Source of the DNA: Myxococcota bacterium
GTDB lineage: Bacteria; Myxococcota_A; UBA9160; JAFDDA01
Assembly (NCBI GenBank): GCA_965228475.1
Contig: OZ245817.1
Location: 2,080,001 to 2,144,000 of the forward strand
Length of the DNA stretch: 64,000 nt
Direction of reading: 5' to 3'
In this document: one piece after another, positions 12,052-58,151 of the stretch
Position numbering within the stretch: position 1 is the stretch's first letter
How the letters are laid out: each line of letters begins with the position of its first letter
Translations under genes and position numbers: made by a program
Notes under the pieces: generated by a model
The model's database searches: none
Told to the model about the DNA's origin: nothing
What the model saw: the letters and a program-made list of their open reading frames with translations, nothing else

Positions 12052-15000
12052 ATGCCCGCGATCGAAGCCTCCCATGCCCTGTCGCCCATGCAGCAGGGCT
12101 TCTTGTTCCATCGCCTCTCGGGTCTCCCCGCCGGGGTCGACCTCGAGCAGATCCTCGTCCGCTGCGAGGAGCGCCTGGACCGGGCGGCCTTCGCCGAGGC
12201 CTTCGCCGCCGTGGTGGCGAGCCATCCGGTCCTGCGCACCCGCTTCCGCTGGGAGGACGTCGAGGATCCGGTCCAGGAGATCCTGGAGGAGGCCACGCTC
12301 GCGATCGACTGGCGCGACCTGGGCGCCGCCGCCGACGCGGATTCCGCGGTCGAGGCCTTCGTCGCCGAGGATCGCGCGCGCGGCTTCGACCTCGGCGAGG
12401 CGCCGCTCTCCCGGGTGACGGTGCTCGAACTCGCCGGCGATGCCTGCGTGGTCGTCTGGTCGTTCCCGCACATCGTGATGGACGGGCGCTCCTTCCCGCT
12501 CGTGCTCCGGGAGCTCTTCGCCCGCTACGACGCCGCGCGCGAAGGTGACGCCGCGCGCGAAGGCCGCACGGCCGAGATCGCCTTGCGCCCGCCCTACGCG
12601 GAATGGGTCGCCTGGGTGCTCGGCCGGGACAGCGCGGCCTCGGAACCCTTCTGGCGCGAACGCATGGGGGGCTTCCGCGAGCCGACGCCGCTGCCGGGCA
12701 AGCCCGCCGAGGCGGAAGCGCGCGGCGAGCGGGAAGTCCGGCTCTCGCGTGAAGACACGGACGCCCTGCGCCGCCACGCCGAGGCCCACGGCCTCTCGCT
12801 GAACAACTTCGTCCAGGGTGCCTGGGCGATCCTTCTCTCGCGCTACTCCGGCGAGGAGGACGTCGTGTTCGGCGCGACGCGTGCCGGCCGCGCCGGGACG
12901 CTTCCGGACGCGGACGAGCGCGTCGGTCTTTTCATCAACACGCTGCCCGTGCGCGTCGGTGTGGACGCCGGGCGCGAGGTGCTGCCCTGGCTGGCCGAGC
13001 TGCGCGAGCGCGAGCGCGCCGTCCGCCCCCACGAGCACACGCCGCTGGTCTCGCTCCAGGGCTGGTGCGACGTGCCGGCCGGGACGCCGCTGTTCGAGAG
13101 CCTGATCGTCTTCGACCACGCGCTGCTCGACAGCCAGGTTCGCGAGGGGACGGACGGTTTCGAGAAGCGCCGCTTCGAGCTGCGCGAGTGCACGAACTTC
13201 CCGCTCACGCTCTACGGCTACGCCGAGCGCGAGCTGCTCTTGAAGCTCGCCTACGACGAGCCGCGCTTCGACGCCGAGCGCGCCGATCGCATCCTCGGCC
13301 ACCTGGCGACCGTGCTCGAGGCGCTGGCCGCGGACCCGGAGCGTCGCGTCGGCGAGCTCTCCATGCTGACCGCGGCGGAGCGAACGCAGATCCTCGAGGG
13401 CTGGAACGCCACCGCGCGCGACTACCCGGGCGACCGCTGCCTGCACGAGCTGATCGAGGCCCAGGTGGACCGGACGCCCGACGCGCCGGCCGTGAGCTTC
13501 GAACACGAGACGCTTTCGTATGCGGAGCTCGATGCCCGGGCCAACCGGCTCGCCCATCGCCTGCGGGAGCTCGGCGCCGGGCCGGACGACCTCGTCGGAC
13601 TCTTCCTCGAGCGCTCCGTGGATCTGGTCGTCGGCGTGCTGGCGGTGCACAAGGCCGGCGCGGCCTACGTGCCCCTCGATCCGGAATATCCCCGCGACCG
13701 CGTCGCCTACATGGTCGAGGACGCGAGCGTCCGGATCGTCGTGACCCAGGCCGCGCTTTCCGGGGACGTCCCGGCGCGCGACGTCGAGATCGTCGCGATC
13801 GATGCCGAGGAGGCCGGTGCCCCCGCCGAGCGGCTCGAGAACCGCGCCACCTCCGCGAACCTCGCCTACGTGATCTACACCTCGGGCTCGACCGGGCTCC
13901 CGAAGGGCGTGATGGTCGAGCACCGGAACGTTGCGAACTTCTTCGCGGGGATGGACGAGCGCATCCCGCACGGCCAGGGGGAGGGCGACGTCTGGCTCTC
14001 GGTGACGAGCCTCTCCTTCGACATCTCGGTGCTCGAGCTGCTCTGGACCCTCGCGCGCGGCTTCCACGTCGTCGTGCAGGCGGACGAGGCGCGTGCCGCC
14101 CGTCGCGGCCCGGCGCCGGCCGCTGCCGCCACGGGGACGGGGCGTCCGCTCTCCTTCGGCCTGTTCTACTTCGCGGCGGACGAGGCCGAGCGCGCCGGCA
14201 ACAAGTACGAGCTCCTGCTCGAGGGTGCGAAGTACGCCGACGCCCACGGCTACTCGGCCGTCTGGACGCCCGAGCGCCACTTCCACGCCTTCGGCGGGCT
14301 CTACCCGAACCCCGCGGTGACCGGCGCCGCCGTGGCCGCGGCCACCGAGAACGTGCAGATCCGCGCGGGCTCGGTCGTGCTGCCGCTGCACCACCCGGCG
14401 CGCATTGCCGAGGAGTGGTCGATCGTCGACAACCTCTCGAACGGCCGGGTCGGCGTCTCCGTGGCGTCGGGCTGGCAGCCGAACGACTTCGTGCTCGCGC
14501 CGGAGAACTTCGCCACGGCGAAGACGGGCCTGTTCGACGGCATCGAGACCGTGAAGAAGCTCTGGCGAGGGGAGGGCGTGGTCTTCCCGGGCCCGAAGGG
14601 CGACGTCGAGACGAAGACCCTGCCGCGCCCGGTCCAGCCCGAGCTGCCCGTCTGGGTGACGAGCGCCGGCAGCCCCGAGACCTTCCGCGAGGCGGGCCGC
14701 ATCGGCGCGAACATCCTGACCCACCTGCTCGGGCAGACGCTCGAAGAGGTCGGCGAGCGCATCGCGATCTACCGCGAGGCGTGGAAGGAAGCGGGCCACC
14801 CGGGGCAGGGCGAGGTCAGCATGATGCTGCACACCTTCGTCGGCGACGACCTCGAGGCGGTGCGGGAGACCGTCCGCCGCCCGATGATGAACTACCTCGC
14901 GAGTTCGGTCGGGCTGATCAAGGGCTTCGCCCAGGCCTGGACGGCCTACAAGAAGAAGTCCGACGGCAGCACCGACGCCGACGTCGACCTGAACACCCTG

Positions 15001-16488
15001 TCCGAAGAGGACATGGAGGACCTCGTCGCCTACTCCTTCGAGCGCTACTTCGAGACCAGCGCGCTGTTCGGGCCGCCCGAGCACTGCCTCGCGCTCGTGC
15101 GCCAGCTCCAGGACATCGGCGTCGACGACATCGCGTGCCTGATCGACTTCGGCGTCGAGACCGAGACGGTGCTCGCGCATCTGCCCCGCCTGACCGAGCT
15201 CAAGGCGATGGCGACGGCGGCCCCGGCCGTGGCCGCCGAGGGCGGGGCTTCCGCCGCCGAGGACTACCGGTTGCCGCAGCAGATCGCGCGCCACGGCGTG
15301 ACGCACCTGCAGTGCACCCCGAGCATGGCGCGGATGATCACGCTCGACCCCGAGGCCCGCGAAGCCGTCGGCAAGCTCTCGGTCTTCATGGTCGGGGGCG
15401 AGGCCCTTCCCGCGAGCCTGGCGCGCGAGCTGTGCGAGATCAGCCCCGCGAAGATCCTGAACATGTACGGCCCGACCGAGACGACGATCTGGTCTTCGAC
15501 GGAGCACGTCACCGCGGATGCCGAGACGGTGACGATCGGGACGCCCATCGCGAACAACCAGCTCTACGTGCTCGACGCCGAGCGTCAGCCCGTGCCCGCG
15601 GGCGTGGCCGGCGAGCTCTACATCGGGGGCGACGGCGTCGTGCGCGGCTACCTCGACCGCCCGGATCTCACGGCCGAGCGCTTCGTCCCGGATCCGTTCC
15701 GCAGCGCCCTCCACGCGAGCGACGCGCCGGCGCGGCTCTACCGCACCGGGGACCTCGCACGCTGGCGGGAAGACGGGCGGATGGAGTTCATCGGGCGCGC
15801 CGATCACCAGGTGAAGGTGCGCGGCTACCGCGTCGAACTCGGCGAGATCGAGGCGCTCCTGAACCTGCACCCGGCGGTCCGCGAGGCGGTCGTCATCCCG
15901 CGCGAGGACGAGGAAGGCGACCAGCGGCTCGTGGCCTACCTGATCCCGCACGCGGGCGAGGCGCCGGCCAGCCAGGCCCTGCGCGAATCCCTGCGCGAGA
16001 AGCTGCCGGACTTCATGGTGCCCTCGCACTTCGTCTGCATGGAGGCGTTCCCGCAGACGCCGAACCGCAAGGTCGACCGCAAGGCGCTGCCGGACCCGGC
16101 GGAGCTCGCCGGCCACAGCCCGGCCGTCCACCGCAAGCCCGAGAACGAGATCGAGGAGGGCATTGCGCGGATCTGGCAGGAGGTGCTGCGCATCCCCCAG
16201 GTCGGGCGCGAGGACAACTTCTTCGATCTCGGCGGCCACTCGCTGCTGGCCTTGAAGACCCACCGCCGGATCGTGGCGGAGCTCGACGCCAGCGCGCTCA
16301 AGATCACGGACCTCTTCCGCTTCCCCACGGTCCGGGCGCTGGCCGAGCACCTCTCGGACGAGGGCGAAGGGCCCTCGCTGCAGCGCAGCCGTGACCGCGC
16401 CGGGGCCCGGCGCGAAGCCATGGCGGCCCGGCGCGGCCGCCCGCGCGCGCGCCGCAAGCCGCGCGGCTCGAGCGAGCCGAGCGAGTGA
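12052..16488 (+). CDS. NRPS C-A-T with a luciferase-like (LLM, MupA/Atu3671-type) monooxygenase inserted in the A domain; predicted Gly-specific
   Basis: C: LSPMQQG, PHIVMDG, VGLFINTLP. A: LSYAEL, YTSGSTGLPKG, SFDIS, NMYGPTE, GELYIGG, YRTGDL, KVRGYRVELGEIE, NRKVDR. LLM (about 14148-15204): WTPERHFH, GRVGVSVASGW. T: FFDLGGHSL. Confidence 0.93.
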   Translation: MPAIEASHALSPMQQGFLFHRLSGLPAGVDLEQILVRCEERLDRAAFAEAFAAVVASHPVLRTRFRWEDVEDPVQEILEEATLAIDWRDLGAAADADSAVEAFVAEDRARGFDLGEAPLSRVTVLELAGDACVVVWSFPHIVMDGRSFPLVLRELFARYDAAREGDAAREGRTAEIALRPPYAEWVAWVLGRDSAASEPFWRERMGGFREPTPLPGKPAEAEARGEREVRLSREDTDALRRHAEAHGLSLNNFVQGAWAILLSRYSGEEDVVFGATRAGRAGTLPDADERVGLFINTLPVRVGVDAGREVLPWLAELRERERAVRPHEHTPLVSLQGWCDVPAGTPLFESLIVFDHALLDSQVREGTDGFEKRRFELRECTNFPLTLYGYAERELLLKLAYDEPRFDAERADRILGHLATVLEALAADPERRVGELSMLTAAERTQILEGWNATARDYPGDRCLHELIEAQVDRTPDAPAVSFEHETLSYAELDARANRLAHRLRELGAGPDDLVGLFLERSVDLVVGVLAVHKAGAAYVPLDPEYPRDRVAYMVEDASVRIVVTQAALSGDVPARDVEIVAIDAEEAGAPAERLENRATSANLAYVIYTSGSTGLPKGVMVEHRNVANFFAGMDERIPHGQGEGDVWLSVTSLSFDISVLELLWTLARGFHVVVQADEARAARRGPAPAAAATGTGRPLSFGLFYFAADEAERAGNKYELLLEGAKYADAHGYSAVWTPERHFHAFGGLYPNPAVTGAAVAAATENVQIRAGSVVLPLHHPARIAEEWSIVDNLSNGRVGVSVASGWQPNDFVLAPENFATAKTGLFDGIETVKKLWRGEGVVFPGPKGDVETKTLPRPVQPELPVWVTSAGSPETFREAGRIGANILTHLLGQTLEEVGERIAIYREAWKEAGHPGQGEVSMMLHTFVGDDLEAVRETVRRPMMNYLASSVGLIKGFAQAWTAYKKKSDGSTDADVDLNTLSEEDMEDLVAYSFERYFETSALFGPPEHCLALVRQLQDIGVDDIACLIDFGVETETVLAHLPRLTELKAMATAAPAVAAEGGASAAEDYRLPQQIARHGVTHLQCTPSMARMITLDPEAREAVGKLSVFMVGGEALPASLARELCEISPAKILNMYGPTETTIWSSTEHVTADAETVTIGTPIANNQLYVLDAERQPVPAGVAGELYIGGDGVVRGYLDRPDLTAERFVPDPFRSALHASDAPARLYRTGDLARWREDGRMEFIGRADHQVKVRGYRVELGEIEALLNLHPAVREAVVIPREDEEGDQRLVAYLIPHAGEAPASQALRESLREKLPDFMVPSHFVCMEAFPQTPNRKVDRKALPDPAELAGHSPAVHRKPENEIEEGIARIWQEVLRIPQVGREDNFFDLGGHSLLALKTHRRIVAELDASALKITDLFRFPTVRALAEHLSDEGEGPSLQRSRDRAGARREAMAARRGRPRARRKPRGSSEPSE

Positions 16489-19400
16489 GCGACGAGAAGA
16501 AGCGAGAGCAGGAGGAGGCGGGTCTCGAGGAAGGCGCGGGCAACGAGATCGCCGTCGTCGGCATGGCGCTGCGCGTGCCCGGGGCGGACACGCCCGAGGC
16601 CTACTGGGAGAACCTGCGCTCGGGCACCGAGTCGATCCGTCACTGGACCGTCGAGGAGCTCGAGGAGGCGGGCGTCGCCCCGGAGCTCCTGCGCGACCCG
16701 CGCTACGTGCGCGCCTCGGGCGTGCTCGACGACATCAGCGGCTTCGATGCGGGCTTCTTCGGCGTCAGCGCGAAGGACGCGGGCATCATGGACCCGCAGC
16801 ACCGGCTCTTCCTCGAGTGCGCCTGGGAGGCGCTCGAGCGGACCGGGCACACCGCCACCGGCTTCCCGGGCGCCGTCGGCGTCTTCGGCGGCTGCGGGAT
16901 GGGCACGTACTTCATCCACAACATCCTGAGCAATCCGGACCTCGTGAACTCGGTCGGCTGGTTCCTCCTCCGCCACACGAACAACGACAAGGACTTCCTC
17001 TCGACCTTCGTATCGTACAAGATGAACCTGACCGGGCCGAGCGTGAACGTGCAGACGGCGTGCTCGACCTCGCTCGTCGCCATCCACGCGGCCTGCCAGA
17101 GCCTGCTCTCGCGCGAGTGCGACATGGCGCTCGCGGGCGGCAGCACGCTCAACGTTCCCCACGAGGTCGGGTACCTCTACCAGGAGGGCGAGATCCTCTC
17201 GCCGGACGGTCACTGTCGCGCCTTCGACGCGCAGTCGGCCGGGACGGTCTTCGGCAACGGCTCGGGCGTGGTGGCGCTTCGCCGGCTCGAGGACGCCATC
17301 GAGGACGGCGACCCGATCCGCGCGATCATCCGCGGCTCCGCGATCAACAACGACGGCTCGCAGAAGGCGGGCTACCTCGCGCCGAGCGTGGAGGGCCAGG
17401 CCGCGGCCATCGCCGAGGCCATCTCCGTGGCAGGCGTCTCGGCCGAGGAGATCGGCTACGTCGAGGCCCACGGCACCGGGACGTCCGTGGGGGATCCGAT
17501 CGAGGTCGCCGCGCTGACTCAGGCCTTCCGCGAGACGAGCGAAGGCAAGGGCTACTGCGGACTCGGCTCGGTGAAGCCGAACATCGGGCACCTCGATACC
17601 GCCGCCGGCGTGGCGAGCTTCATCAAGGTCGTGCTGGCACTCGAACACGGGGAGATCCCGCCCTCGCCCCACTACGAGCGGCCGAACCCGGCGATCGACT
17701 TCGATACGAGCCCGTTCTACGTCAACGCCGAGCATCGCGTCTGGGAGAGCGAGGCGCCGCGGATCGCCGGGGTGAGCTCCCTCGGCGTCGGCGGCACGAA
17801 CGCCCACGTGATCCTCGAGGAGCCTCCGCCGCCGGAGCCGAGCGGCGCGGGCCGCGCGGTCCAGCTGCTTCCCCTCTCGGCGCGCACGCCGGCCGCGCTC
17901 GCGGAGGCGAGCCAGCGGCTCGCCGAGCATCTGCGCGCGAACCCGGACGTGCCGCTCGCGGACGCCGCCTGGACGCTCCAGGTCGGCCGGAAGCCCCTCG
18001 ACCATCGCAAGGGCGTCGTGTGCCGCACGGTCGAGGAGGCCATCGCGCGCCTCGAGACGCCGGACAAGCGCACCGTGGCGAGCGGGCAGGTCGCCGGCCC
18101 GAGCCCCTCGACGGCGTTCCTCCTGCCGGGAGGCGGCGCCCAGTACCCGCGCATGGGACTCGGGCTCTACGAGGATGAGCCGATCGTGCGCGAGCACGTC
18201 GACCGCGGCCTCGAGATCCTCCGCACGCGGTTCGATCTCGACCTGCGCGACGTCTGGTTCCCGGAGGACGCCGGCCTCGAAGCCGCGGCCGAGACCTTCC
18301 AGCGCCCGGCGCTGCAGCTCCCGGCGATCTTCATCCTCGAGTACGCGCTGGCGAAGCTCTGGATGTCCTTCGGCGTGAAGCCCCAGGCCCTGATCGGGCA
18401 CAGCATGGGGGAGAACACGGCGGCCTGCCTCGCCGGCGTCATGTCCTTCGAAGACGCCCTCGGCCTGGTGACCCTGCGCGGCCGGCTCTTCGAGACCACC
18501 GAGCCGGGCGGCATGATGAGCCTCTCGCTCCCGGCGGACCGGGCGGCCGAGTACGTCGCCGAGGACACGGTGTTGGCCTCGGTGAACGGGCCGAGCCTGT
18601 GCGTGATCTCGGGTTCGGACGCGGCGATCGATCGGCTCGAGAAGCGGCTCGCGGAAGACGAAGTCGACCATCAGCGCGTGCGGATCTCCGTCGCGGCGCA
18701 CTCGCCCCTGCTCGATCCGATCCTGGAAGAGTTCGGCGCGTACCTGCGGAGCATCGAGCTCCACCCGCCGGAGATCCCGATCGTCTCGAACCGCACGGGG
18801 ACGTGGCTCTCGGACGACCAGGCGACGAACCCGGACTACTGGGTCCAGCACCTGCGCCACACCGTGCACTTCGCCGACGGCGTCGGCACGCTGCTCGAGA
18901 CGCCCGGCCGGGTCCTGCTCGAAGTCGGGCCCGGCAAGACCCTCGGCTCGCTCGCGCGCCAGCACGCATCGGCCAGCCCCGGGCAACCCGTCGTGTCCTC
19001 CCTGCGACATCCCGAGGAAGCCATCGCCGACGCGGACTTCTTCCACCTGGCGCTCGGCCGGGTCTGGATCGGCGGGGCTTCGGTCGACTGGGAGCAGTAC
19101 CACCGCGGCGAAGATCGGCAGCGTCTGACGCTCCCGACCTATCCCTTCGAGCGGCAGCGCTACTGGATCGAACCCGGCACGGCGCGCTACGAAGCGCCGG
19201 CGCCCGTCCTCCCGATCGAGAAGCTCACGGACCCGGACGACTGGTTTCGCCGGCCTGCCTGGCACACGGCGCCGCCGCCCGGGAAGTCCGCCGCCGAAGA
19301 AGAGCCGCGCACGTGGCTGTTCTTCCTCGACGCCGCCGGGATCGGGAGCGAGCTCGTCGCGCGCCTGCGCGGGGCGGGGCACCGGGTCGTCACGGTGAAG

Positions 19401-22400
19401 GAAGGCGACGCCTTCTACCGCTTCGGCGACGACGACTTCGCCCTGGCTCCGGAAGCCGGCCGCGACGGCTACGACCAGCTGGTGCAGGCGCTGAACGAAA
19501 GCGAAGCGCTGCCCGACCGCATCGTCCACCTCTGGCTCGTCACCGCGGACGAGAGCGCGCGTGCGGGATCGAGCTTCTTCCACCGCAACCAGGAGCGCGG
19601 CTTCTACAGCCTGCTCTTCCTGATGCAGGCCCTCGCCGGCGAAGACTCGTCCGGCGCCCGCCGCATCGATCTGCTCTCGACGGGGCTGCACTCCGTCTCC
19701 GGGGAGGCTCTGCCGCACCCCGACAAAGCCACCGTTTTCGGGCCTTTGCGCGTGATCCCTCACGAGTTCCCCGAGGTCCGCTGCCGGAACGTCGACGTCG
19801 AGGTCCCCGGCGCGGAGCGCGCGTCCGGCGAGGGCTCGCCGATGGCGGCGCTGCTCGATCGGCTGCTCGGCGAACTGGGCGAAGGCGCGACCGCGGACGT
19901 CGTGGCCTACCGCGGCGACGTGCGCTTCGAGCAGACCCTCGAGAAGCTCGCGCCCGAGACGCTCGAAGCGGGCGGGACGCCGCTGCGGGACGGCGGGGCG
20001 TACCTCGTGACCGGCGGCCTCGGCGGCATCGGCTTCGCGGTGGCCGAGCAGCTCGCCGAGCGCGCGAAGGCACGGCTGGTGCTGCTCTCGCGCCGCGGCT
20101 TCCCGGAGCGAGAGGCCTGGGACGCCTGGCTCGAGCGCCACGGCGAACGCGACGGCACGAGCGAACGCATCCGCCGCATCCGGCGGCTCGAGGCGGCGGG
20201 CGCCGAGGTCTGGGTCGCCACGGGCGACGTCGCGAACATCGAACGCATGCGCGAAGTCGTGCGGGAGGCCGAGGCGCGCTTCGGGCCGCTTCATGGTGTC
20301 TTCCACGCGGCCGGCACGATCGAGGACGGCGTCATCCCGATGAAGAGCCCGGAGGCGGCCGAGCGCGTCTTCACGCCGAAGGTTCACGGCACCCTCGTGT
20401 TCGCCGAGCTCTTCGCGGACAGCGCGCTCGACTTCCTCGTGCTCTTCTCGTCGACGAGCACGGTCCTCGGCCCGCCCGGCCAGGTCGACTACACCGGCGC
20501 GAACGCCTTCCTCGACGCCTTCGCGGCCAGCCGCCGCGGGGCGCCCGGCCCGCGCACGGTGACCGTCGGCTGGGGCGTCTGGAACGAGGTCGGCATGGCC
20601 CGTCAGATCCAGCGCGGCCTGCGCGGAGATGACGTCGACGCCGGCGCCGAACACCTGCGCGTGGCGCATCCGCTGCTCGACGAGCGCATCGATCTCGGCG
20701 GCGGCCGGACGCTCTACGCGAGCGAGCTCTCGCCCCAGGACCGCTGGGTGCTGGACGAGCACCGCCTGAAGGATGGCCGCGCCGTCTGGCCGGGCACGGG
20801 CTACCTCGAACTCGCCCGGGCCGCCGCGTCCGACCTGCTCGAGGGCGCCGCCTTCGGCCTCGAGGGCGTGCAGTTCCTGGCACCGCTCGAGGTTCCGGAC
20901 GACGGCGAGCGCCGCATCGAGCTCGAACTCGAACGGGACGGCGACGTGCTGCGCTTCGAGATCCGCAGCCGCGACCTCGACGCCGAGGAGGGCGCTTCCG
21001 CGGAGCCCGTCCTCCACGCCCAGGGCCGTGTCCGTCCGGGAGCCCCGGAGCCCGCGGCGTCGCTCGACGTGCCGACGCTGGCGGCGGCCTGCACGGGAGA
21101 TCTCCGCGAGGGGACGGACCTCGCCAGCGACCAGGACGTGCTGCTGGCCTTCGGGCCCCGCTGGCGCTGCCTCGAGCGCACGGGCTTCGGCGAGGGCAGG
21201 GCGCTCGCCCGGCTCGCCCTCTCGAGCGAGTTCAGCCGCGACCTCGACGACCACCATCTCCACCCGGCGCTGCTCGACCTCGCCACCGGCTTCGCCCTGC
21301 GGCTCGTCCCCGGCTACGAGCCCGGCGAGCAGCTCTACGTGCCGCTCTCCTACGACCGCGTCGCGATCCACGCCCCGCTCGAGCGGGAGCTGGTGAGCCA
21401 CGTGCGGGCGCGCCGGAGCAACCAGGCCGGCGGCGAGACCGCGGCCTTCGACGTGACCCTGGCGGATCTCGGCGGGCGGGTGCTCGTCGAGGTCACCGGG
21501 TTCACGATGCGGCGCATCGCCGGGCCGCGTGCCCTCGAGGCGGCGCCGCCGAGCGCCGGGCCGAGCGGGACCTCCGCCGCCGAGCGCGTCTTCCTCGAGT
21601 CCTTCGAGGCCGGCATCCGCGTCGACGAAGGCATGGCCGCGCTCGAGCGCATCCTCGGCCACGAGACCCCGGCCCAGGTGCTCGTGAGCTCGATCGATCT
21701 CGACCTCCTGCGCAAGCGCCACGCCGAGGTCGGCGCCGAGGAGCAGGCCGGCGCGGGCGTGAAGTTCGCGCGGCCCTCCCTCGCGAGCGAGTACGTCGAG
21801 CCGCGCGACGAGATCGAAGAGGCCCTGGTCGCGCTCTGGGAGGAACTCCTCGGGGTCGATCCGATCGGCGTGGAGGACGACTTCTTCGAGCTCGGCGGCC
21901 ACTCGCTCATCGCCGTGCGCCTGTTCGCCGCGATCAAGAAGAAGTACGGCGTCGAGTTCCCGCTCTCGGTGCTCTTCGACGCGCCGACCGTCGCCGCCTG
22001 TGCAGAGCTCCTCCGCGAGGAGGTCGGCGAGGCATCCGAGGGCGAGGCGCCGAAGCGCCGGCGCCGGGCCTACGACTTCCTGGTGCCGATGAACGACGTC
22101 AAGGAGGCGACGAAGGCGCCGTTCTTCCTGGTCTCCGGGATGTTCGGGAACGTGCTGAACCTGCGGCACCTGGCGGCGCACCTCGGCGAGGACCAGCCGG
22201 TCTTCGCGATCCAGGCGCGCGGCCTCTACGGCGACGAAGAGCCCCACACCCGCTTCGAGGACATGGCGCGCGACTACCTGCGCGAGATCCGCACCGTGCA
22301 GCCCGAGGGGCCGTACTTCCTCGGCGGCTTCTCCGGCGGCGGACTGACGGCCTTCGAGATGGCCCACCAGCTCCGCGCCGAGGGCGAGGAGGTCGCGACG

Positions 22401-32992: not shown

Positions 32993-33000
32993 GGGCTCCG

Positions 33001-49851: not shown

Positions 49852-50852
49852 CGGGACGGTTCCTCGTCGCTCTCGAAGTCTTCTTCGCCGCTCAGGACTT
49901 CCTCGTCGCGGCGCATGTAGTAGCCGTACTGGCTGCCGTGGCGGCTCGTGCCGGCCTCGTTCAGGTGGATGCCGATCAGCTGGTCGCGCGGGAGGAGGCC
50001 GAGGGCCTCTTCCATGTTCGAGCGGGACGTCTGCCCGGACCGGACCACGAACAGCGCAGCGCCGAAGTGCGGCATGGCCAGGGAGACGTCCGGGACGAGC
50101 AGGACCGGCGGCGTATCGGCGACGACCAGGGCGTAGCGTTCGCCGAGCTCCTCCATCGCGCGGCCGAAGGCGGCGGTGGCGAGCATCTCGTGGGCGTGCG
50201 GGATGGGGCGCACGACCGGCAGGACGTCGAGGTCCGTCATGCTCGTGCGATGGCAGGCCTCGGCGAGGTCCGCCTCGCCGCGCAGCACGGCGTCGAACCC
50301 GACCTTCGGCCGGATCCCGAGGCCGCGCGCCACGCTCGGCCGGCGCAGGTCGAGGTCCACGAGGATCACGCGGCGCCCGGCCGACATGGACGCGAGCGCC
50401 ATGGCCAGGTTGCAGCTCGTGACGGTCTTGCCTTCGTGGCGCAGCCCGCTCGTGACGGCCAGACGGTTCACACCCCGGGCCTCGAGTTCGCGGCGAACGC
50501 GCAGGGCCAGATGGCGAAAGCGCTCGGTGACGGCGCCGGGCGGAGCGGACTCCATGGCGCGCGCTTGCCAGAAGCCCGAGCGGGTGGGCCGGATTCTCAG
50601 GATCTCCCGGTTCGGATCGAGGGGGCGGGGCGCCGGCGGGGCGGGGCGCGCCGGTGCGATCCGCGGCTCCGCGGGCGGCGGGACGTCCCGCTTCCGCTCG
50701 GCATCCGGTTTCCGTTCGGCATCCGGGGTCGGGCGCAGCTCACGTTCGGCGTCCGGGTCCCTTGCCGGGGGCCGGGGCTCGCGTTCGCCGCGCTCTTCGC
50801 GCGCGGCGCGTTCGGCCCGGGCCCGGCGGAGGGCATCGGCGATCTCACCCAT
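49848..50852 (-). CDS. CpsD/CapB family tyrosine-protein kinase
   Basis: TSGLRHEGKT, VDLDLRRP and DTPP; C-terminal YGYY cluster; start MGEIADAL. Confidence 0.92.
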   Translation of the reverse strand: MGEIADALRRARAERAAREERGEREPRPPARDPDAERELRPTPDAERKPDAERKRDVPPPAEPRIAPARPAPPAPRPLDPNREILRIRPTRSGFWQARAMESAPPGAVTERFRHLALRVRRELEARGVNRLAVTSGLRHEGKTVTSCNLAMALASMSAGRRVILVDLDLRRPSVARGLGIRPKVGFDAVLRGEADLAEACHRTSMTDLDVLPVVRPIPHAHEMLATAAFGRAMEELGERYALVVADTPPVLLVPDVSLAMPHFGAALFVVRSGQTSRSNMEEALGLLPRDQLIGIHLNEAGTSRHGSQYGYYMRRDEEVLSGEEDFESDEEPSR

Positions 50853-51771
50853 CGGCCGGGTCCTCCGTCGAGCGCGGGGCTGGGGCGGCGGGCATCGTGC
50901 CCTCCGCCGGAGGCGCACCGGGATTCAGGGGCGCCGGATGGATGGGGCCCGGAAGGAGCGCCGCGGAGTCGGCCATGCCGCGCGCCTTCTTCTCGACCAG
51001 CTCGGCGGGCACCGGGCGCACGCTCTTCCCGTAGGCGGCGAGCAGGACGCGGTCGGCCAGCAGGTTGATCAGGCGCGGGCAGCCGCGGGAGAACTCGTAG
51101 AAGACCTTCTCGACGCCGGGCCCGAAGACCTCCTCGTAGCGGCCTCCGGCGACTTCGATGCGGTGCGTGAGGTAGGCGGTGATCTCTTCGGGCAGGAGGG
51201 ACTCCACGTGGTGTTCGAGGGCGATGCGCTGCCGCAGGGGCCGGAGGGCCGGGTCGGCGAGGGTGGCGCGCAGCTCCGGCTGTCCGGTCAGCACGATCTG
51301 CAGGAGCTTCTCCGTATCCGTCTCGAGATTCGAGAGCAGCCGCACTTCTTCGAGCGCCACGCCGTCGAGGTTCTGCGCCTCGTCGATGATCAGGACGACG
51401 TTTCGGCCGTCGGCGAGGCGGTCGAGCAGGAAGGAGTTCAGCGCGATCACGTAGTCGGCTTTGGTCTCGAGTTCACCCTTCACGCCGAGCTCGCGAACGA
51501 TCAGCTTCAGCAGGTCGAGCGGGCCGAGGCCGGCGGTGTTCAGGATCAGCGCGGTGTCGGTCTCGTCCGGCACGCGTTCGAGCGCGGCGCGCAGCAGCGT
51601 CGTCTTGCCCGCGCCGACCTCGCCGGTCAGCAGCAGGAACCCGCGGCGGCTCTCGATGCCGTAGCAGAGCGCGCCGAGGCCTTCCTCGTGCGTTTCCGAC
51701 GGCCAGAGAAATCGCGGATCCGGCGTCAGCGAGAAGGCGGATTCCCGCATGCCGAAGAACGACTCGTACAT
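50845..51771 (-). CDS. ExeA-family AAA ATPase (type associated with PEP-CTERM/EPS loci)
   Basis: MYESFFG..FSLTPDPRF, GEVGAGKTT, IIDEAQNL, LTGQPEL and GCPRLIN. Confidence 0.92.
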   Translation of the reverse strand: MYESFFGMRESAFSLTPDPRFLWPSETHEEGLGALCYGIESRRGFLLLTGEVGAGKTTLLRAALERVPDETDTALILNTAGLGPLDLLKLIVRELGVKGELETKADYVIALNSFLLDRLADGRNVVLIIDEAQNLDGVALEEVRLLSNLETDTEKLLQIVLTGQPELRATLADPALRPLRQRIALEHHVESLLPEEITAYLTHRIEVAGGRYEEVFGPGVEKVFYEFSRGCPRLINLLADRVLLAAYGKSVRPVPAELVEKKARGMADSAALLPGPIHPAPLNPGAPPAEGTMPAAPAPRSTEDPADG

Positions 51772-52177: not shown

Positions 52178-53584
52178 TTGTCCATGCTGAAGTCCCATGC
52201 CCGCCAGCTCCACACGCTGATCCTTTCGGCCGACCTTCTCCTCTCGGCCGCGGTCTTCGTGGGAGCCCTCTCGCTCTTCGGTGCCCTCGACATCGACGAA
52301 GGGTCGGCCCTCAGTCTGATCGGGCTCGGCGCGGTCTCCTGTTTCGCCTGGCCGATCACCCTCGATCAGCTCGAACTCTACGGCTCCCAGCGTCGGAGCG
52401 ATTGGATCTCGCGCGCGGCCGGGCTCGTGCTCGCCGCGTGCGTCGTGACGGGGCTGACGCTCTCCACCTGGATGCTGCTCCGGCCGCCGGTGCCGTACTC
52501 GCTGCCGCTGCTTTGCGGCGCCGCCCAGCTCGCACTGCTCGGCAGCGTGCGCTTCCTGATCTGGGGCGGGCTCTGGGCGATGCGCCGGCGGGGCCGCAAC
52601 TACCGCAACGTGCTGATCTTCGGCACGGGGGAGCGCGCGGCGCAGGTCGGGGCCGAGATCGAGGCGAACCCCGGCTGGGGCCTGCGCGTGGTCGCCTTCG
52701 TCGACGACCGCGACACGCCGGTCGACGAGCGCGTCCCCACCGACCGCGTCCACAAGCTCTGGGACCTCGAAGACCTGCTGCGCGACCACGTGATCGACGA
52801 GGCGCTGCTCGCCTGCCCGCGCAGCATGATGGGCTCGATCGCACCGGCCGTGGCGATCCTCTCGGAGGCCGGCGTCCCGGTGACGCTGCTCTCGGATCTG
52901 TTCGGCGACATGGTGCCGCCGCCGCGCGTCACCCGCTTCGGCTCGATGGCCGCACTCTCCTTCGCGCCGGTCCACCACAGCAAGATGAAGCTCGCCCTGA
53001 AGCGCGGTGGCGACCTCGTCGCGACGACGCTGCTCTCGGTGGTGGCGCTCCCGATCGTCGGCCTCGCGGCGCTCGCGATCAAGCTGACCTCGCCCGGGCC
53101 GGTCTTCTTCCGCCAGGTCCGCAGCGGACTGAACGGTCACACCTTCGAGATGTTCAAGCTGCGCACGATGTACGTCGACGCCGAGGCCCGGAAGGCCGAC
53201 CTGCTCGAGCTGAACGAGATGGACGGCCCCGTCTTCAAGATCAAGAACGATCCGCGCATCACGCCGGTCGGCGGGTTCCTGCGCCGCTTCAGCATCGACG
53301 AGCTGCCGCAGCTCTGGAACGTCCTGCGCGGCGACATGAGCATCGTGGGCCCGCGGCCGCCGCTTCCGAGCGAGGTGAGCCAGTACCGCAACCGGGACCG
53401 ACGGCGCCTCTCCATGCGGCCGGGCCTGACCTGTCTGTGGCAGGTGAGCGGGCGCAACACGATCGGCTTCGACGATTGGGTCCAGCTCGACCTCGAGTAC
53501 ATCGACCGCTGGAACCTGGGCTCCGACGCCAAGATCCTGCTCAAGACGCCCGCCGCGGTCTTCCGCGCGAAGGGCGCGAGCTAG
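52178..53584 (+). CDS. Priming polyprenyl-phosphate sugar transferase (WcaJ/WbaP-type)
   Basis: N-terminal TMs; KRGGD, FKLRTM, DPRIT, SIDELPQLWNVLRGDMSIVGPRP and RPGLTCLWQV; start TTG 52178 or ATG 52184. Confidence 0.95.
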   Translation: MSMLKSHARQLHTLILSADLLLSAAVFVGALSLFGALDIDEGSALSLIGLGAVSCFAWPITLDQLELYGSQRRSDWISRAAGLVLAACVVTGLTLSTWMLLRPPVPYSLPLLCGAAQLALLGSVRFLIWGGLWAMRRRGRNYRNVLIFGTGERAAQVGAEIEANPGWGLRVVAFVDDRDTPVDERVPTDRVHKLWDLEDLLRDHVIDEALLACPRSMMGSIAPAVAILSEAGVPVTLLSDLFGDMVPPPRVTRFGSMAALSFAPVHHSKMKLALKRGGDLVATTLLSVVALPIVGLAALAIKLTSPGPVFFRQVRSGLNGHTFEMFKLRTMYVDAEARKADLLELNEMDGPVFKIKNDPRITPVGGFLRRFSIDELPQLWNVLRGDMSIVGPRPPLPSEVSQYRNRDRRRLSMRPGLTCLWQVSGRNTIGFDDWVQLDLEYIDRWNLGSDAKILLKTPAAVFRAKGAS

Positions 53585-53604: not shown

Positions 53605-54129
53605 CTAGCGGGCCTCTCGCGAAACCAGACGGCCGGGCACGCCCACCACGACTCCCCCCGAAGGCACGTCCTCGAGGACGACGGCGTTGGCGCCGATCTT
53701 CGCGTGGGCGCCCACGCGGATGCCGCCCAGGATCTTCGCCCCGGCGCCCACGTCCACGTGTCCCTCGAGGACCGGGCAGCCCGGGCGCGGGCCCTCGCCG
53801 ACGGTGACCTGTTGGAAGAGCAGGCAGTTGGGACCGATCCGGGCGCGGGGATGGATCACGACCCCGTTCGGGTGCGGCAGGAGCAGGCCGCCTTCGATCT
53901 GGCAGTCGAGGGGAACGTCCGCGCCCGAGACCGCGGACCAGAAGCGGTGCGAAACCACGGCCAGGCGCGCGCGAAGCCCGCGGCTCGCCTGGTAGCGGCG
54001 CAGGGCGCCCAGCAGCTGACGGCCGGGTTCCCACTGCCAGCGATTCGCGAGCGCCTCGCGGGACCAGTCCGGGTCGACCGCGGAGATCGTCTCCTGTGCG
54101 GCCTCGTAGGCTGTTTCGCCGGATGCCAT
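53605..54129 (-). CDS. Serine O-acetyltransferase-like hexapeptide acetyltransferase (WcaB-like)
   Basis: PHPNGVVIH, QQVTVG, GAGAKILG and IGANAVV..DVP..VGVP. Confidence 0.85.
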   Translation of the reverse strand: MASGETAYEAAQETISAVDPDWSREALANRWQWEPGRQLLGALRRYQASRGLRARLAVVSHRFWSAVSGADVPLDCQIEGGLLLPHPNGVVIHPRARIGPNCLLFQQVTVGEGPRPGCPVLEGHVDVGAGAKILGGIRVGAHAKIGANAVVLEDVPSGGVVVGVPGRLVSREAR

Positions 54130-54241: not shown

Positions 54242-54706
54242 TCAGAGCACGATCGTCTGGGTCGACAGCGGCGACTCGCCGGCCTCGTTGTACAGGCTGG
54301 CCTTGAACTCGCCGTTGCCGCTGAAGCGCACGAACCAGAGCGAGAGCTCGGGGACCTCGCCGCTGCGGTCGATCTGCGCCGAGAGCGTCACGCCGAGCGT
54401 GTTGCCCGACGGATCGATCAGCTCGTACTCGAGGAACTCGGTGCCGTTCTCCTCGACGGTATCCGTGAACCGGATCTCCGAGAGCGGCTCGAACTCCCCG
54501 GTGACCTCGGACTTGCGCCACATCCAGATGCCGCCGATCGGACCGTCGTCCAGGGCGGGGACCTGCATGCGGAGCACCTTCACGTGCTCGGGAATGATCT
54601 GTTGCGTGACGAGATTCGGATCGACGGGGCCGCAGGCCACGGTGCCGAGAAGCAGCGTGGTCGCGAGCATCACCGCCGGGGTGGCGAAGCGGTGCGAACG
54701 TGACAT
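54242..54706 (-). CDS. Hypothetical lipoprotein
   Basis: Hydrophobic signal ending in lipobox TVAC; GGAG RBS; acidic, beta-rich mature part. Confidence 0.7.
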   Translation of the reverse strand: MSRSHRFATPAVMLATTLLLGTVACGPVDPNLVTQQIIPEHVKVLRMQVPALDDGPIGGIWMWRKSEVTGEFEPLSEIRFTDTVEENGTEFLEYELIDPSGNTLGVTLSAQIDRSGEVPELSLWFVRFSGNGEFKASLYNEAGESPLSTQTIVL

Positions 54707-54844: not shown

Positions 54845-55609
54845 CTAGCCCTGGGGGCTCTCGGGGGCCTCCTGCGGCCAATGGCTGCCGAGCAGGACGT
54901 CGAGGTCGCCCCCGAACTCGACGAGCCGGCTGCGGCCCGCCAGGCGCTCCTCCTCCCCGGAGAGGGGCGTGGAGATGCGGACCACCGCCCCGTCGGCGCG
55001 GTCGTGGCGCAGGCGGCCGAGGAACCGGTCCCAGGTCTGATCGACCGCGTCGAGCATGCCGGTGCTGCGGTGGGAGCGGTACCAGAAGTGGACGAGGGCG
55101 AGGCTGCCGTTCTTCTCGACGAGCATCTCGTGCGCACGCAGCCCGCGCTCGGCGTCGACGGTCACGGTCTGCGTTTCCGTGATGGCCCAGCCGGCGTTCG
55201 GGTAGCAGACCCAGGGCGTGTGTTCGGGGCGGCCACCCCGATCGGTCCCGTAGTAGCCGACGTACACGCCGATGCGTACGCCGAGCGGGTGGACGTAGGC
55301 GCGCTGGAGGTTGTGGTCGGCGCGCAGGATCGCTTCGACTTCGGAGTCGAGGGGGATGTCGAGCGCATCCCATTCCCCGATCCGCGCGGGGACGCCGTCG
55401 AGGGGCGTCGCGTCGACGGCCAGGGGCTCGCGGAGCTGGAAGGACCAGGCCAGCGCGCCGACGGCGAGGAGCACGGTCGTGAGCACGGCGATCTGCAGGC
55501 GCTCGGCGCGTTTGCGCCGGGCGGCCTCGGCACTCGGCACGTCGGCCGGTGCGGCTTCGGCGGGGGGCCGCGTGGCTTCGGGCGGACTGGGGTCGGGGGC
55601 TTCGCTCAC
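54845..55609 (-). CDS. epsI: EpsI family exosortase-associated periplasmic protein
   Basis: TM anchor; P.RIGEW, RAY, YVGYY, HTPWVCYPNAGW, FWY and DGAVVRIS. Confidence 0.88.
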   Translation of the reverse strand: MSEAPDPSPPEATRPPAEAAPADVPSAEAARRKRAERLQIAVLTTVLLAVGALAWSFQLREPLAVDATPLDGVPARIGEWDALDIPLDSEVEAILRADHNLQRAYVHPLGVRIGVYVGYYGTDRGGRPEHTPWVCYPNAGWAITETQTVTVDAERGLRAHEMLVEKNGSLALVHFWYRSHRSTGMLDAVDQTWDRFLGRLRHDRADGAVVRISTPLSGEEERLAGRSRLVEFGGDLDVLLGSHWPQEAPESPQG

Positions 55610-56490
55610 GGCGGGGACGAGGGTAGCGGGGCCTTCGGCTTCGCGGAGAGCGAGAACGCGAGAAGCGCCATCGTCGCGGTGAGTGCCCAGGGCGCGACGT
55701 CGAGGAAGAACCGCACGTCGAGGGGCGCGCTCATGCCGAGCAAGCCGCCGGCGAGGGCGATGGCGAGGATCTCGAGCGGTGCAAACAGCAGGCTCGCCGC
55801 GAGTGCGCGCAGGAGGGTCGTGAGGACCGGCCAGCCCCAGCGCAGCCCCGCATACCAGCCGAGCCCGAAGAGCAGGACGGCCACCGAGAGGCCGCCGTCC
55901 CGGTCGAAGAGCCCTAGGGTCTCGGCGCCGACGTGGAGCGTGGTCTCGTAGCGGTCGGCCTCGACCAGGGCCGGGAAGCCCGCCGCGCGCAGGACCCGTG
56001 CCGCAACTCCGGCGAAGGCCGCCTCGAGCCCGGGCGACCCGAGCGACACCAAAGCGTGGGGAACCGGCACAAACCCGAACAGCAGGAGTCCCGTCCGGAG
56101 GCGCGGGCGGCCGGTGAGCTGCGACACGCCGAGCGCGGCGACCGGCAGCAGGAGCCGCGCAGCCCGGGTGAAGCCGCCGGCGACGAGCAGGAGCTCCGCC
56201 GCGAGCGCGACGCCGAGCAGAAGCCAGCCGAGGCCCGGGCGGCGCGGGCCGGGAGCCTCGCGCAGGAGTTCCCGGGCGAAGAGCGGAATGAAGACGAGGC
56301 AGTAAGCTGCCCAGGGCCGCTCAACGAGATGTCTCGCGAGGTCGATGAGAACCGGGGAAAATGCCGCAAGAAGAAGCGACCAGCAGAGCCACTCCGGGGG
56401 AGCGGGAAGCGTCGACCCCGGGCCCGGCGCGGACGGAGCGGGGAATCGAGGCCCCGAGTCCGGAGCCGGGCGAGCGGGACCCTGCGGCAT
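55606..56490 (-). CDS. Exosortase-like multi-TM protein lacking catalytic residues
   Basis: Aligns by eye with the neighbouring exosortase (AFSPVL/VFSPAF, FVPVP/MVPVP, RVLRAAGFP/TVLRPLDVP) but has DRDGG in place of EACSG; its stop overlaps the epsI start. Confidence 0.65.
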   Translation of the reverse strand: MPQGPARPAPDSGPRFPAPSAPGPGSTLPAPPEWLCWSLLLAAFSPVLIDLARHLVERPWAAYCLVFIPLFARELLREAPGPRRPGLGWLLLGVALAAELLLVAGGFTRAARLLLPVAALGVSQLTGRPRLRTGLLLFGFVPVPHALVSLGSPGLEAAFAGVAARVLRAAGFPALVEADRYETTLHVGAETLGLFDRDGGLSVAVLLFGLGWYAGLRWGWPVLTTLLRALAASLLFAPLEILAIALAGGLLGMSAPLDVRFFLDVAPWALTATMALLAFSLSAKPKAPLPSSPP

Positions 56491-57356
56491 CGTCCGGGCT
56501 GGATAGCGGTTCGCTCGGGGGGAGGGAAGGGCCGTCGTCCGCCTTCGACGCGCTGCTGCTCGGCGCCGTGCTGCTCGTGTTCTCGCCGGCTTTCCTGGCC
56601 ATGGCCGAGGTCTGGGAGGTCGTCGACTACCAGGCGCACGGCTTCCTCGTCGGTCCGGTCGCGGCGGCGATGGCATGGTCACGCCGGGAGTCCTTCGCGG
56701 CGGCGAGTGCGCCGGGCGCGGGGCTCGGCCTCGTCCTGCTCGTGGCCGCGCTGCTCGCCTACGTCGCGGGGGTGATGGCGGAGGTGCTCTCGCTGCAGGG
56801 CGTGGCGCTGCCCCTCGCGCTCACCGGGCTCGTTCTCTGGCGGCGCGGCGGTGCCGCGTTGCGCGTGCTGGCGTTCCCGATCGCGTATCTGCTCTTCATG
56901 GTCCCCGTCCCGCCCCAGTGGCTGACGCCCCTCGTGACCAAGCTCCAGGCCTTCGTGACGAACGCCGCGATGACGGTGCTGCGCCCCCTCGACGTTCCGG
57001 TGCTGCAGGAAGGCAACGTGCTGGTCCTGCCCGAGGGCTCGCTGTTCGTGGCCGAGGCCTGCAGCGGGATCACCTCCATCGTCACGCTCCTGCCCGTGGC
57101 GGCCCTCCTGATCTTCCTGGCGCCGACGACCCGGCGGCAGTCGATCGGTCTGCTGCTCGCCGTCGTCCCGATCGCGATGTTCTGGAACCTGGTGCGGGTG
57201 CTCGTCACGGTCGCCGCCACGCGCCAGGTCGGCGTCGTCCAGGCGACGAGCGGTTCTCTCCACGATACGGCGGGAATGCTCACGTTCGTGGCGGGTTGCG
57301 TGACGCTTCTGCTCGTTTCCTTCCGGTTCGAGCCGCCGGAGCCTGCGCGCGCCTGA
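56361..57356 (+). CDS. Exosortase (EpsH/Xrt family)
   Basis: HGFLV, MVPVP, EGN, VAEACSG (Cys), NLVR (Arg) and LHD (His); true start uncertain. Confidence 0.93.
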   Translation: MPQEEATSRATPGEREASTPGPARTERGIEAPSPEPGERDPAASSGLDSGSLGGREGPSSAFDALLLGAVLLVFSPAFLAMAEVWEVVDYQAHGFLVGPVAAAMAWSRRESFAAASAPGAGLGLVLLVAALLAYVAGVMAEVLSLQGVALPLALTGLVLWRRGGAALRVLAFPIAYLLFMVPVPPQWLTPLVTKLQAFVTNAAMTVLRPLDVPVLQEGNVLVLPEGSLFVAEACSGITSIVTLLPVAALLIFLAPTTRRQSIGLLLAVVPIAMFWNLVRVLVTVAATRQVGVVQATSGSLHDTAGMLTFVAGCVTLLLVSFRFEPPEPARA

Positions 57357-57384: not shown

Positions 57385-57470
57385 GATCCCATTCGGCCTT
57401 TCCGAGTAACCTCGTCCTGCGACGGGGGCACTCACCGTCGAACGCCGCCGAACCCGGCCGAGGATTTTCC

Positions 57471-58151
57471 ATGCTGAAGCGCACCCACCGAACGCTCTCC
57501 CTGCTTTCCGCTCTCGCCGTCGGACTGTTGCTCGGCGCCACCGCCCAGGCGGCGCCCATCGCCGACGTCCTCTCGGGGACCGACGGCAACTTCCGCTTCT
57601 CTGTCGTGCACACGTCGACGGGCTGCAGCGATGGACAGTGCGGCTCGATCCTCGGCGAAGTCAGCCTCGGAGCTGGCGGTGGCAACTGGCTCTCGGACGG
57701 CACGAACGCCTTCCTCGACCTCGAACTCGACGTGAACGTCGGCGGCTCGATCTCGACCTACAACGCCAAGGGCGCCTTCAGCGAGACCGCGCTCACCGAC
57801 TTCGGCACCCAGGCCGACGTGCTGCTCGGTTCCCTCGACGTCACGCTGCTCTCCGGCGCCGACGACGCCGGCCTCGACGGCCTGACCTTCCTCTTCGAAG
57901 ATCGGAACTACTCGACGGCGGCCAACCCGCCGAACGGCCTGACCGGCAACATGCTGACGCTCTGGGGCGCCACGGCCTACACCGGAACGCCGACCCTCGG
58001 CTCCGCCCTCGACCTCGTGCCCGGTGGCATCGGCATCGACCTGCGCGTCGAGATCGGCCCGCCGATCCCGGAGCCCTCGGCCAAGCCGCTCTTCCTGGCC
58101 GGCATCGCGGTGGTGGCCTTCGGCGCCTCGCGCATGCGGCGCAGCGCCTAG
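57471..58151 (+). CDS. PEP-CTERM sorting domain protein
   Basis: Signal peptide ending AQA; C-terminal IPEPS + hydrophobic TM + RMRR; directly after the exosortase. Confidence 0.92.
   Translation: MLKRTHRTLSLLSALAVGLLLGATAQAAPIADVLSGTDGNFRFSVVHTSTGCSDGQCGSILGEVSLGAGGGNWLSDGTNAFLDLELDVNVGGSISTYNAKGAFSETALTDFGTQADVLLGSLDVTLLSGADDAGLDGLTFLFEDRNYSTAANPPNGLTGNMLTLWGATAYTGTPTLGSALDLVPGGIGIDLRVEIGPPIPEPSAKPLFLAGIAVVAFGASRMRRSA

Follow-up and report, generated by a model that had tools for sequence, protein, structure and literature searches.

What would a nonribosomal peptide synthetase (NRPS) and a polyketide synthase (PKS) be making inside an exopolysaccharide (EPS) locus? The question is raised by a 64,000-bp stretch of the genome of a Myxococcota bacterium (contig OZ245817.1, positions 2,080,001 to 2,144,000; hereafter the window), in which positions 12052 to 58151 carry two sets of carrier-protein genes among Wzx/Wzy-type EPS genes, an exosortase gene and a PEP-CTERM gene. 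The host genome is a single contig of 5.0 Mb (C1 in coordinates below), with approximately 71% G+C around the window. Genes were called by codon bias and the predicted proteins were scanned with Pfam and NCBIfam models. This inventory bore out the NRPS, PKS, phosphopantetheinyl transferase (PPTase), glycan and exosortase genes of an initial annotation, as well as its carrier-protein sets among Wzx/Wzy genes, the second of which proved to consist of an AurF-like oxygenase, an acyl carrier protein (ACP) and a stand-alone adenylation (A) domain. No unassigned gap longer than 406 nt was left in 12052-58151. No gene of this region matched an exporter family in the scans, in line with the earlier statement that a dedicated exporter is lacking. 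Absent from the initial annotation were the AurF-like oxygenase, a tandem GNAT (33001-34131) and a luciferase-like oxygenase within the NRPS A domain. Because the NRPS-PKS cassette sits among glycan genes here and in many unrelated bacteria, a tag for a surface polymer, and not a drug for secretion, is suggested, and the locus is best classed as a real, widespread and uncharacterized system of carrier-protein envelope tailoring. We estimate a probability of about 0.6 that the NRPS-PKS group goes onto a repeat-unit sugar and that the second set adds an N-oxidized glycyl or alanyl acyl group.

The single-module NRPS starts with a full condensation (C) domain, which keeps its catalytic His within the motif WSFPHIVMDG. 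The insert in its A domain is a MupA/Atu3671 luciferase-like oxygenase (LLM; TIGR04020, 515 bits) with PuwE as closest PDB match (6KET, E 1e-116). The specificity positions of this A domain read D-I-L-Q-M-G-M-I-W-K, a glycine-type code if the reference positions and glycine consensus are as we assume them to be, and the D-I-L and M-[IV]W elements predominate among the NRPS homologs. In the type I PKS, the Cys/His/His of the ketosynthase (KS), the Ser of the acyltransferase (AT), the Tyr of the ketoreductase (KR), the His/Asp of the dehydratase (DH) and the Ser/His of the thioesterase (TE) are all kept, the TE having weak matches only to PDB sequences. The AT motif is VAAHS (V/IAAHS in 24 of 32 aligned sequences), and the extender unit is uncertain since this motif departs from the canonical malonyl one. 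The PPTase gene and an SGNH gene come after the PKS on its strand. Immediately upstream of the NRPS lies a Crp/Fnr regulator gene (window 11114-11890), with a 54% homolog in the EPS locus of relative G048 (G and L numbers are our labels for genomes and loci).

The A(LLM) region served as query for a scan of GTDB, which confirmed at least 587 stretches; the loci studied were the best 80, from many phyla. Most of these encode a formyltransferase (FMT) starter in the arrangement FMT-(half C)-A(LLM)-T, T being the carrier domain, commonly followed by KS-AT-KR-DH-T-TE; full C starters as in the window fall at three distinct positions in an A(LLM) tree (FastTree). Among the flanking genes, Pfam labelled 296 of the 326 unlabelled cluster representatives. 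Neighbours were counted over a flank of approximately 10 kb, excluding 15 of the 80 loci with less than 4 kb of flank. With a uniform tblastn set, 33 of 49 formyl-type or truncated, 4 of 6 C-starter and 3 of 10 multimodule loci had glycan neighbours, as compared with 5.7% of random windows from their own genomes. Some sequences of this broader reference set came from the very loci under study, and the contrast may be inflated as a result; we therefore repeated the count with the 13 window glycan proteins only and obtained 25 of 49, 0 of 6 and 0 of 10, with 0.9% for random windows. Co-conservation with EPS genes, a check set in advance, thus held for 25 to 33 of the 49 single-module loci versus 0 to 3 of the 10 multimodule ones. 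The commonest glycan partner of the NRPS-PKS is one of the family 2 glycosyltransferases (GT) of the window, GT2b, found in 11 of 95 loci.

The cassette is also carried by plasmids, with 29 records at E 1e-110 or better, eight of which were hand-picked for inspection. In six of the eight (Shinella, Paracoccus, Aminobacter, two Ruegeria, Deinococcus) it lies among GT, flippase or sugar-transferase genes; on an Aliiroseovarius plasmid only XrtD and a VPLPA-CTERM gene adjoin it, and a Nostoc plasmid holds a multimodule cluster with neither glycan nor exosortase neighbours. Ruegeria conchae and the window share GT2b, Wzy-like, CysE-like and 2-oxoglutarate (2OG) oxygenase genes, and XrtD is found near the R. 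conchae cassette. The association with PEP-CTERM genes recurs in Roseobacter-group plasmids but was not seen in the inspected Shinella, Paracoccus and Aminobacter stretches, and an obligatory link was therefore rejected. The initial annotation had also mentioned Roseobacter cassettes beside WecB/TagA glycosyltransferases. WecB neighbours were seen in Shinella and Paracoccus, but the in-cassette GT of the two inspected Ruegeria records is a GT2 with 41% identity to the product of 31943-33001 and not a WecB/TagA enzyme.

The catalytic domains of the Ruegeria cassettes, arranged as PKS-GT2-NRPS(-PPTase), are 41 to 66% identical to those of the window. A conserved Roseobacter cluster with NRPS, PKS, GT and PPTase genes was reportedly described by Martens et al. 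in 2007. Judging from gene content and from the Roseobacter-group plasmids that carry the cassette beside XrtD, the Ruegeria records very probably represent this orphan cluster. According to the available text of two papers, it is conserved, with an uncharacterized product (PMC4337385, PMC5014874), and occurs in 28 of 57 roseobacter genomes (PMC4337385); that text makes no connection to polysaccharide decoration. As in the window, a single-module NRPS, a type I PKS, a GT and a PPTase stand together. However, the Ruegeria copies start with a formyltransferase whereas the window NRPS has a full C domain, their gene order is unlike that of the window, and no AurF-ACP-A-GNAT set was seen in them.

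Release partners are not the same from one locus to the next; the types encountered have links to glycan loci or to the acylation of sugars. Downstream of TE-less PKSs lie pairs that resemble, below the cut-off, the exosortase-associated hydrolases TIGR03100/03101 (L004, L021, L047, G017, G019), and PKS-less NRPSs adjoin NeuD/PglD sugar acyltransferases (L023, L052, L056, L057; in L023 also DegT). The latter four are cyanobacterial and Chloroflexota FMT-A(LLM)-T loci, some also with DegT, ATP-grasp and PLP decarboxylase genes, and are candidates for an amino-sugar N-acylation pathway. In two Ignavibacteria loci (L019, L032), a C-type NRPS-PKS is accompanied by genes for radical SAM proteins, a 2-oxoacid oxidoreductase, additional carrier proteins and an O-antigen ligase.

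The second carrier set belongs to a same-strand run, from 38476 down to 31943, of genes for the AurF-like oxygenase, the ACP, the stand-alone A domain, Wzx, a GNAT-fold orphan and a GT2. The AurF-like protein (37601-38476) reaches 157.6 bits with PF11583, for a cut-off of 29.6, and has two ExxH motifs (ENRH and EARH); no PDB sequence matched it at E 0.001. It is predicted to be an AurF/CmlI-type diiron oxygenase acting in amine N-oxygenation. The ACP gene, below the open reading frame cut-off, was found by translation, and its start codon is uncertain, probably CTG. The specificity region of the stand-alone A domain has 6AKD, 8K4R and 4OXI as closest solved relatives, which we take to be IdnL7, VinM and AlmE. 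The motifs DLTFDLS and FCG are common to this protein and 4OXI and are kept in orthologs, and the substrate is probably a small amino acid, Gly or Ala. A search with the orphan protein (33001-34131) brought up 551 homologs with E values of 1e-20 or lower. The AlphaFold model of the orphan (pLDDT 93.8) led Foldseek to Eis-like tandem GNATs and N-myristoyltransferases (E 1e-9, TM approximately 0.5), and the modelled fold is that of a GNAT acyltransferase.

Among 146 genomes of the order, the NRPS is present in 32, an AurF ortholog in 25 and both in 22. The NRPS thus occurs in 22 of the 25 AurF-positive versus 10 of the 121 AurF-negative genomes, and all seven AurF-positive genera include NRPS carriers; this co-occurrence is given as counts, since kin are not independent and a Fisher test was not relied on. 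Both sets lie in or beside EPS loci in G048, G038, G131, G072 and L115 (across two contigs in G048 and G072), and G098 has PKS-AurF-A-NRPS-GT2 as one same-strand run. In metagenomes, the ACP adjoins AurF in 13 of 17 loci, and the seven loci of at least 6 kb comprise five with GT/Wzx/Wzy genes, one with genes for a membrane-bound O-acyltransferase (MBOAT) and an SGNH protein, and one with none of these. The GNAT travels with AurF-ACP-A, being within 1.5 kb in 10 of 23 loci, and an MBOAT is linked to the AurF set in G048 and L120. In Tistrella and Azospirillum, distant AurF homologs (30-39%) belong to small-molecule clusters that include MFS or MATE genes. At three loci (L207:9624-15292, L209:8876-14447 and L127, which ends within FMT), the AurF gene immediately precedes that for FMT-A(LLM)-T, and neither PKS nor glycan genes are near; this two-oxygenase mini-system possibly makes a free molecule resembling N-formyl-N-hydroxyglycine. 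Two EPS loci (L119:3888-6967, L217:2-1756) have an A domain, a small carrier-sized protein and an acyl-CoA dehydrogenase upstream of AurF-ACP-A, a third carrier set that presumably resembles aminomalonyl-ACP-type pathways.

We propose that the two lines work as follows. In the first, the carriers would be primed by the PPTase, and glycine would be loaded by the A domain and N-acylated by the N-terminal domain, with formyl in most homologs and another acyl group via the C domain here. The embedded oxygenase would then hydroxylate the glycyl alpha-carbon, as proposed for MtaG/MelG, which have the organization C-A(MOx)-T-TE with a split A domain (PMC11411415, available text). For PuwE, 2-hydroxylation of a tethered acyl chain has been proposed (PMC4219810, available text). 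MtaG/MelG and the window NRPS share an oxygenase inserted in a glycine-type A domain; MtaG/MelG, however, form the terminal module of a long line, where the glycine is sacrificed to leave an amide, whereas the window NRPS has no TE or upstream modules, starts a two-enzyme line and feeds the PKS. The PKS would add one C2 unit, reduce it and dehydrate it to give roughly a 4-acylamido-4-hydroxy-but-2-enoyl thioester, and the TE would pass the butenoyl group to a nucleotide sugar or an undecaprenyl-linked repeat unit, to be processed by the linked GT2, Wzx and Wzy. In the second line, the ACP would receive Gly or Ala from the stand-alone A domain, the amine would be oxidized by the AurF-like enzyme (to hydroxylamine, oxime or nitro) by analogy with Alb2/Alb3 of althiomycin biosynthesis, a methyltransferase may cap the oxidized amine, and the tandem GNAT would deliver the acyl group, with an amino sugar as acceptor. 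The AsnB-type ligases, the deacetylase, the CysE-like and the SGNH proteins may contribute amide and acetyl tailoring, and the polymer would exit via a Wza encoded elsewhere or be ligated to PEP-CTERM proteins. The genes with their domains and catalytic motifs, the modelled GNAT fold and the co-conservation are observations; for both lines, we infer the substrates, the regiochemistry of the oxygenases, whether extension is single or iterative, what the acceptor is and that attachment takes place. It is a long shot that the alpha-hydroxylated, dehydrated product of the first line, an N-acyl hemiaminal, acts as a masked 4-oxo-butenoyl electrophile on the polymer, cross-linking it to amines of deacetylated sugars or PEP-CTERM proteins, with the second line adding an oxime, nitro or hydroxamate group. 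If so, the matrix would be chemically cured or metal-binding through assembly-line chemistry; we know of no such oxime, nitro or hydroxamate group in bacterial glycans.

Several observations weigh against polymer decoration. No glycan gene was found in the flank of 16 to 24 of the 49 loci, a third to half. The acyl/amide substituents that the initial annotation proposed for the EPS or PEP-CTERM glycans are thereby supported in part, through co-conservation with EPS genes. In all five glycan-less loci tested on long contigs, WecB and priming-GT genes were more than 80 kb away or on other contigs, and a GT2b-like match was found in one of five glycan-less genomes tested. In three Comamonadaceae loci (L028, L034, L035), the gene after the PKS encodes an FtsX-type ABC permease. 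Second AurF-NRPS copies (G133, G093) and a C-type NRPS (G146) have no PKS or glycan neighbours; these copies and the detached cassettes may act in trans or make free products. The zero of six in the window-only repeat concerns C-starter loci of other phyla. In addition, the sample consists of the 80 best among at least 587 loci, kin are not independent, and the order-wide AurF/NRPS count is dominated by one genus (g29). To our knowledge, no polysaccharide carries such a substituent, and a literature search found none.

The most serious alternative, which we consider unlikely, is glycosylation, by the linked GTs, of an amino-lipid or small scaffold made by the NRPS-PKS, giving a glycolipid, a polymer anchor, for which RkpA/WcbR presumably offer a precedent, or a metabolite using the Wzx route. 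The tightest partner is indeed a GT2, whose gene (41% ortholog of GT2b) separates the PKS gene from the NRPS gene in Ruegeria and Paracoccus; a PKS that stands alone and has KR and DH domains without an enoylreductase (ER) could iterate to a polyene, and detached cassettes occur. Carenaemin of Collimonas arenae is made by a PKS-NRPS, is diffusible and needs a Wzx/Wzy locus, although it comes from a three-amino-acid multimodule line at a separate locus, is antifungal and has an MFS gene (PMC8313283, available text). Against a scaffold, the PKS-less versions L010, L011, L023, L031 and L058 retain glycan neighbours, so no long chain is required, and the NeuD/PglD-type neighbours are sugar acyltransferases.

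Both lines might instead form one pathway, in which the C domain takes the AurF-oxidized aminoacyl-ACP as starter in place of formyl, a wiring that we regard as rather improbable. The conserved catalytic His of the C domain, the presence of AurF in three of five C-type relatives, and AurF in line with the NRPS in G098 and in the two second copies speak for it; AurF-ACP-A, however, also occurs at loci with a formyl-starter NRPS (G038, G131) and usually brings its own GNAT. The rule that the C domain needs AurF was rejected, as the C-type genomes G066 and G146 (86% and 89% complete) had no AurF match.

That the lines release free small molecules (such as an amino-butenoate with an N-formyl, N-hydroxy or oxime group that serves as signal, chelator or antibiotic), with EPS proximity reflecting biofilm co-regulation or island co-transfer, is quite unlikely: an intact TE can release a free acid, orphan cassettes, AurF-NRPS pairs without glycan genes and the three ABC permease loci exist, and AurF plus a methyltransferase form the oxime of the antibiotic althiomycin (PMC3445576, available text), but the cassette genes are interleaved with GTs in an order that varies across phyla, no exporter is found at the present locus, unlike the distant AurF-ACP clusters of Tistrella and Azospirillum, and the product of the Roseobacter cluster was reported as unidentified in the available text of the 2015 and 2016 papers.

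Decoration of a surface polymer, the reading that we prefer, has counterparts among known systems. Carrier-based acylation of the envelope is found in the glycylation of lipid A by AlmEFG and the D-alanylation of teichoic acids by DltACBD. The window set likewise has a stand-alone A domain, a carrier protein and a transferase, with an envelope polymer as its probable target; it differs by adding a diiron oxygenase and using a tandem GNAT, no MBOAT, DltB-type or AlmG-type transferase being matched among the window proteins by Pfam or NCBIfam. Alb2/Alb3 similarly place an AurF-like N-oxygenase and an O-methyltransferase beside carrier-bound amino acid chemistry, but within a multimodule antibiotic line with an MFS exporter and, in the available text, no glycan genes named (PMC3445576). 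The accessory proteins of exosortase A/PEP-CTERM systems (TIGR03098 ligase, TIGR03108 amidotransferase, TIGR03100/1 hydrolases, TIGR03019 FemAB) likewise bring carrier-linked ligases, amidotransferases and acyltransferases to exosortase EPS loci; the window proteins fall below the cut-offs of these models, none of which is an NRPS-PKS. In the main texts of the open literature, we found no paper proposing glycan decoration for the A(LLM) NRPS-PKS family and no description of the AurF-ACP-A-GNAT set or of polysaccharide decoration by AurF-ACP. The available text of PMC8273931, PMC8776678, PMC4062626 and PMC2525486 gives no product for the NRPS-PKS family. Modification of type B flagellin of Clostridioides difficile by an NRPS was rejected as a precedent, the paper naming FemAB-like and ATP-grasp enzymes and no NRPS term.

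Genome-mining counts take such clusters as antibiotic potential. The product of the orphan Roseobacter cluster may have escaped detection by staying on the polymer, out of reach of extraction. If polymer decoration is right, NRPS-PKS lines would rank with the Dlt/Alm-type systems among the machineries that tailor the envelope, and biofilm and floc formers would be predicted to carry new glycan substituents. Cultured hosts of the cassette include Ruegeria conchae, Paracoccus marcusii, Sphingobium sp. Leaf26 and Aminobacter.

The remaining genes of the locus (Table 1) make up a Wzx/Wzy exosortase EPS set, with a priming GT, Wzx, a weakly matched Wzy, a chain-length determinant/kinase, an exosortase and EpsI. 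The two AsnB-family ligases of the initial annotation are both of the Asn-synthase family, but that of 38756-40522 has only the Asn_synthase domain and no GATase match. The single PEP-CTERM gene is not special to the locus, because a pattern search found approximately 90 such tails across the genome. The second exosortase-like gene is transcribed away from the canonical exosortase and lies upstream of EpsI. The protein of 43648-45570 is Asn/Gly-rich, has homologs in related EPS loci (L013, L117, L219) and is possibly a polymer lyase or matrix protein.

Table 1. Features of the carrier-protein and exopolysaccharide locus (window positions).
Feature	Position	Strand	Basis
NRPS, C-A(LLM inserted)-T, single module	12052..16488	+	Pfam, TIGR04020 515 bits, motifs
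PKS, KS-AT-KR-DH-ACP-TE, type I, one module, without ER	16485..22916	+	Domains, catalytic motifs
Phosphopantetheinyl transferase (PPTase)	22906..23616	+	Pfam/NCBIfam
SGNH protein 1, one N-terminal transmembrane (TM) segment, probably extracytoplasmic	23617..24735	+	Pfam, TM prediction
Gfo/Idh/MocA oxidoreductase	24732..25811	-	Pfam
SAM methyltransferase	25804..26769	-	Pfam; 57% orthologs within EPS loci of G038, G101
WecB/TagA/CpsF glycosyltransferase	26928..27773	+	Pfam/NCBIfam
Polysaccharide deacetylase, start approximate	27790..28654	+	Pfam
GT2 (GT2a)	28676..29578	-	Pfam
2OG-Fe(II) oxygenase	29580..30488	-	Pfam; homologs adjoin cassette in Sphingomonas, Sphingopyxis, Ruegeria
GT4	30675..31988	+	Pfam
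GT2 (GT2b)	31943..33001	-	Pfam
Tandem-GNAT acyltransferase-fold protein	33001..34131	-	AlphaFold, Foldseek, synteny; no Pfam match
Wzx flippase	34252..35718	-	Pfam/NCBIfam
Stand-alone adenylation enzyme, VinM/IdnL7/AlmE-like	35758..37353	-	Specificity-region match to solved structures
Stand-alone carrier protein, DltC-like	37359..37604	-	GLLSSLD motif, weak DltC/ACP matches
AurF-family diiron oxygenase (predicted)	37601..38476	-	PF11583 E 5e-46
Asn-synthase-fold ligase, no GATase domain detected	38756..40522	+	Pfam
GT2 (GT2c)	40519..41538	+	Pfam
AsnB-type amidotransferase	41558..43441	-	TIGR01536 above cut-off
Secreted PKD-domain protein	43648..45570	-	Pfam
SGNH protein 2, weak AlgX-like match, one N-terminal TM segment	45914..47029	+	Pfam, TM prediction
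Wzy/O-ligase-like polytopic membrane protein	46995..48416	-	Weak Wzy_C E 6e-4; ~9 predicted TM
Chain-length determinant (Wzz), tyrosine autokinase, ATPase	48463..51771	-	XrtA/PEP-CTERM-type resemblance, below NCBIfam cut-offs
Priming polyprenyl glycosylphosphotransferase	52178..53584	+	TIGR03025
CysE/EpsC-like hexapeptide acetyltransferase	53605..54129	-	NCBIfam; 48% homolog in Ruegeria conchae locus
Small lipoprotein-like protein, no family	54242..54706	-	Sequence features
EpsI	54845..55609	-	NCBIfam
Divergent second exosortase-like membrane protein	55606..56520	-	Weak PF09721, E 0.004
Exosortase	56361..57356	+	TIGR02602 above cut-off
PEP-CTERM protein	57471..58151	+	IPEP-TM-RR tail; weak Pfam match E 0.006

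No OPX/Wza gene was found at the locus, and the sole Poly_export match of the genome is at C1:1194782. It belongs to a separate XrtA-type export locus (C1:1194629-1199700) with a Wza-like protein, a weak outer-membrane protein match, a chain-length determinant, an ATPase and a kinase, which could serve as exit for the polymer of the present locus. The sole MBOAT match of the genome (C1:2468916-2469905), approximately 330 kb off, is 48-55% identical to the MBOATs of the AurF/EPS loci in G048 and L120 and might act in trans together with the two SGNH proteins. Finally, a second glycan-biosynthesis region lies directly upstream (window 1-5681; C1:2048780-2085681), with lon and RNase R genes in between. 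It encodes a priming GT, two AsnB homologs, an epimerase-like protein, a hexapeptide acyltransferase, a Gfo protein and a GT4, and includes a PEP-CTERM gene.

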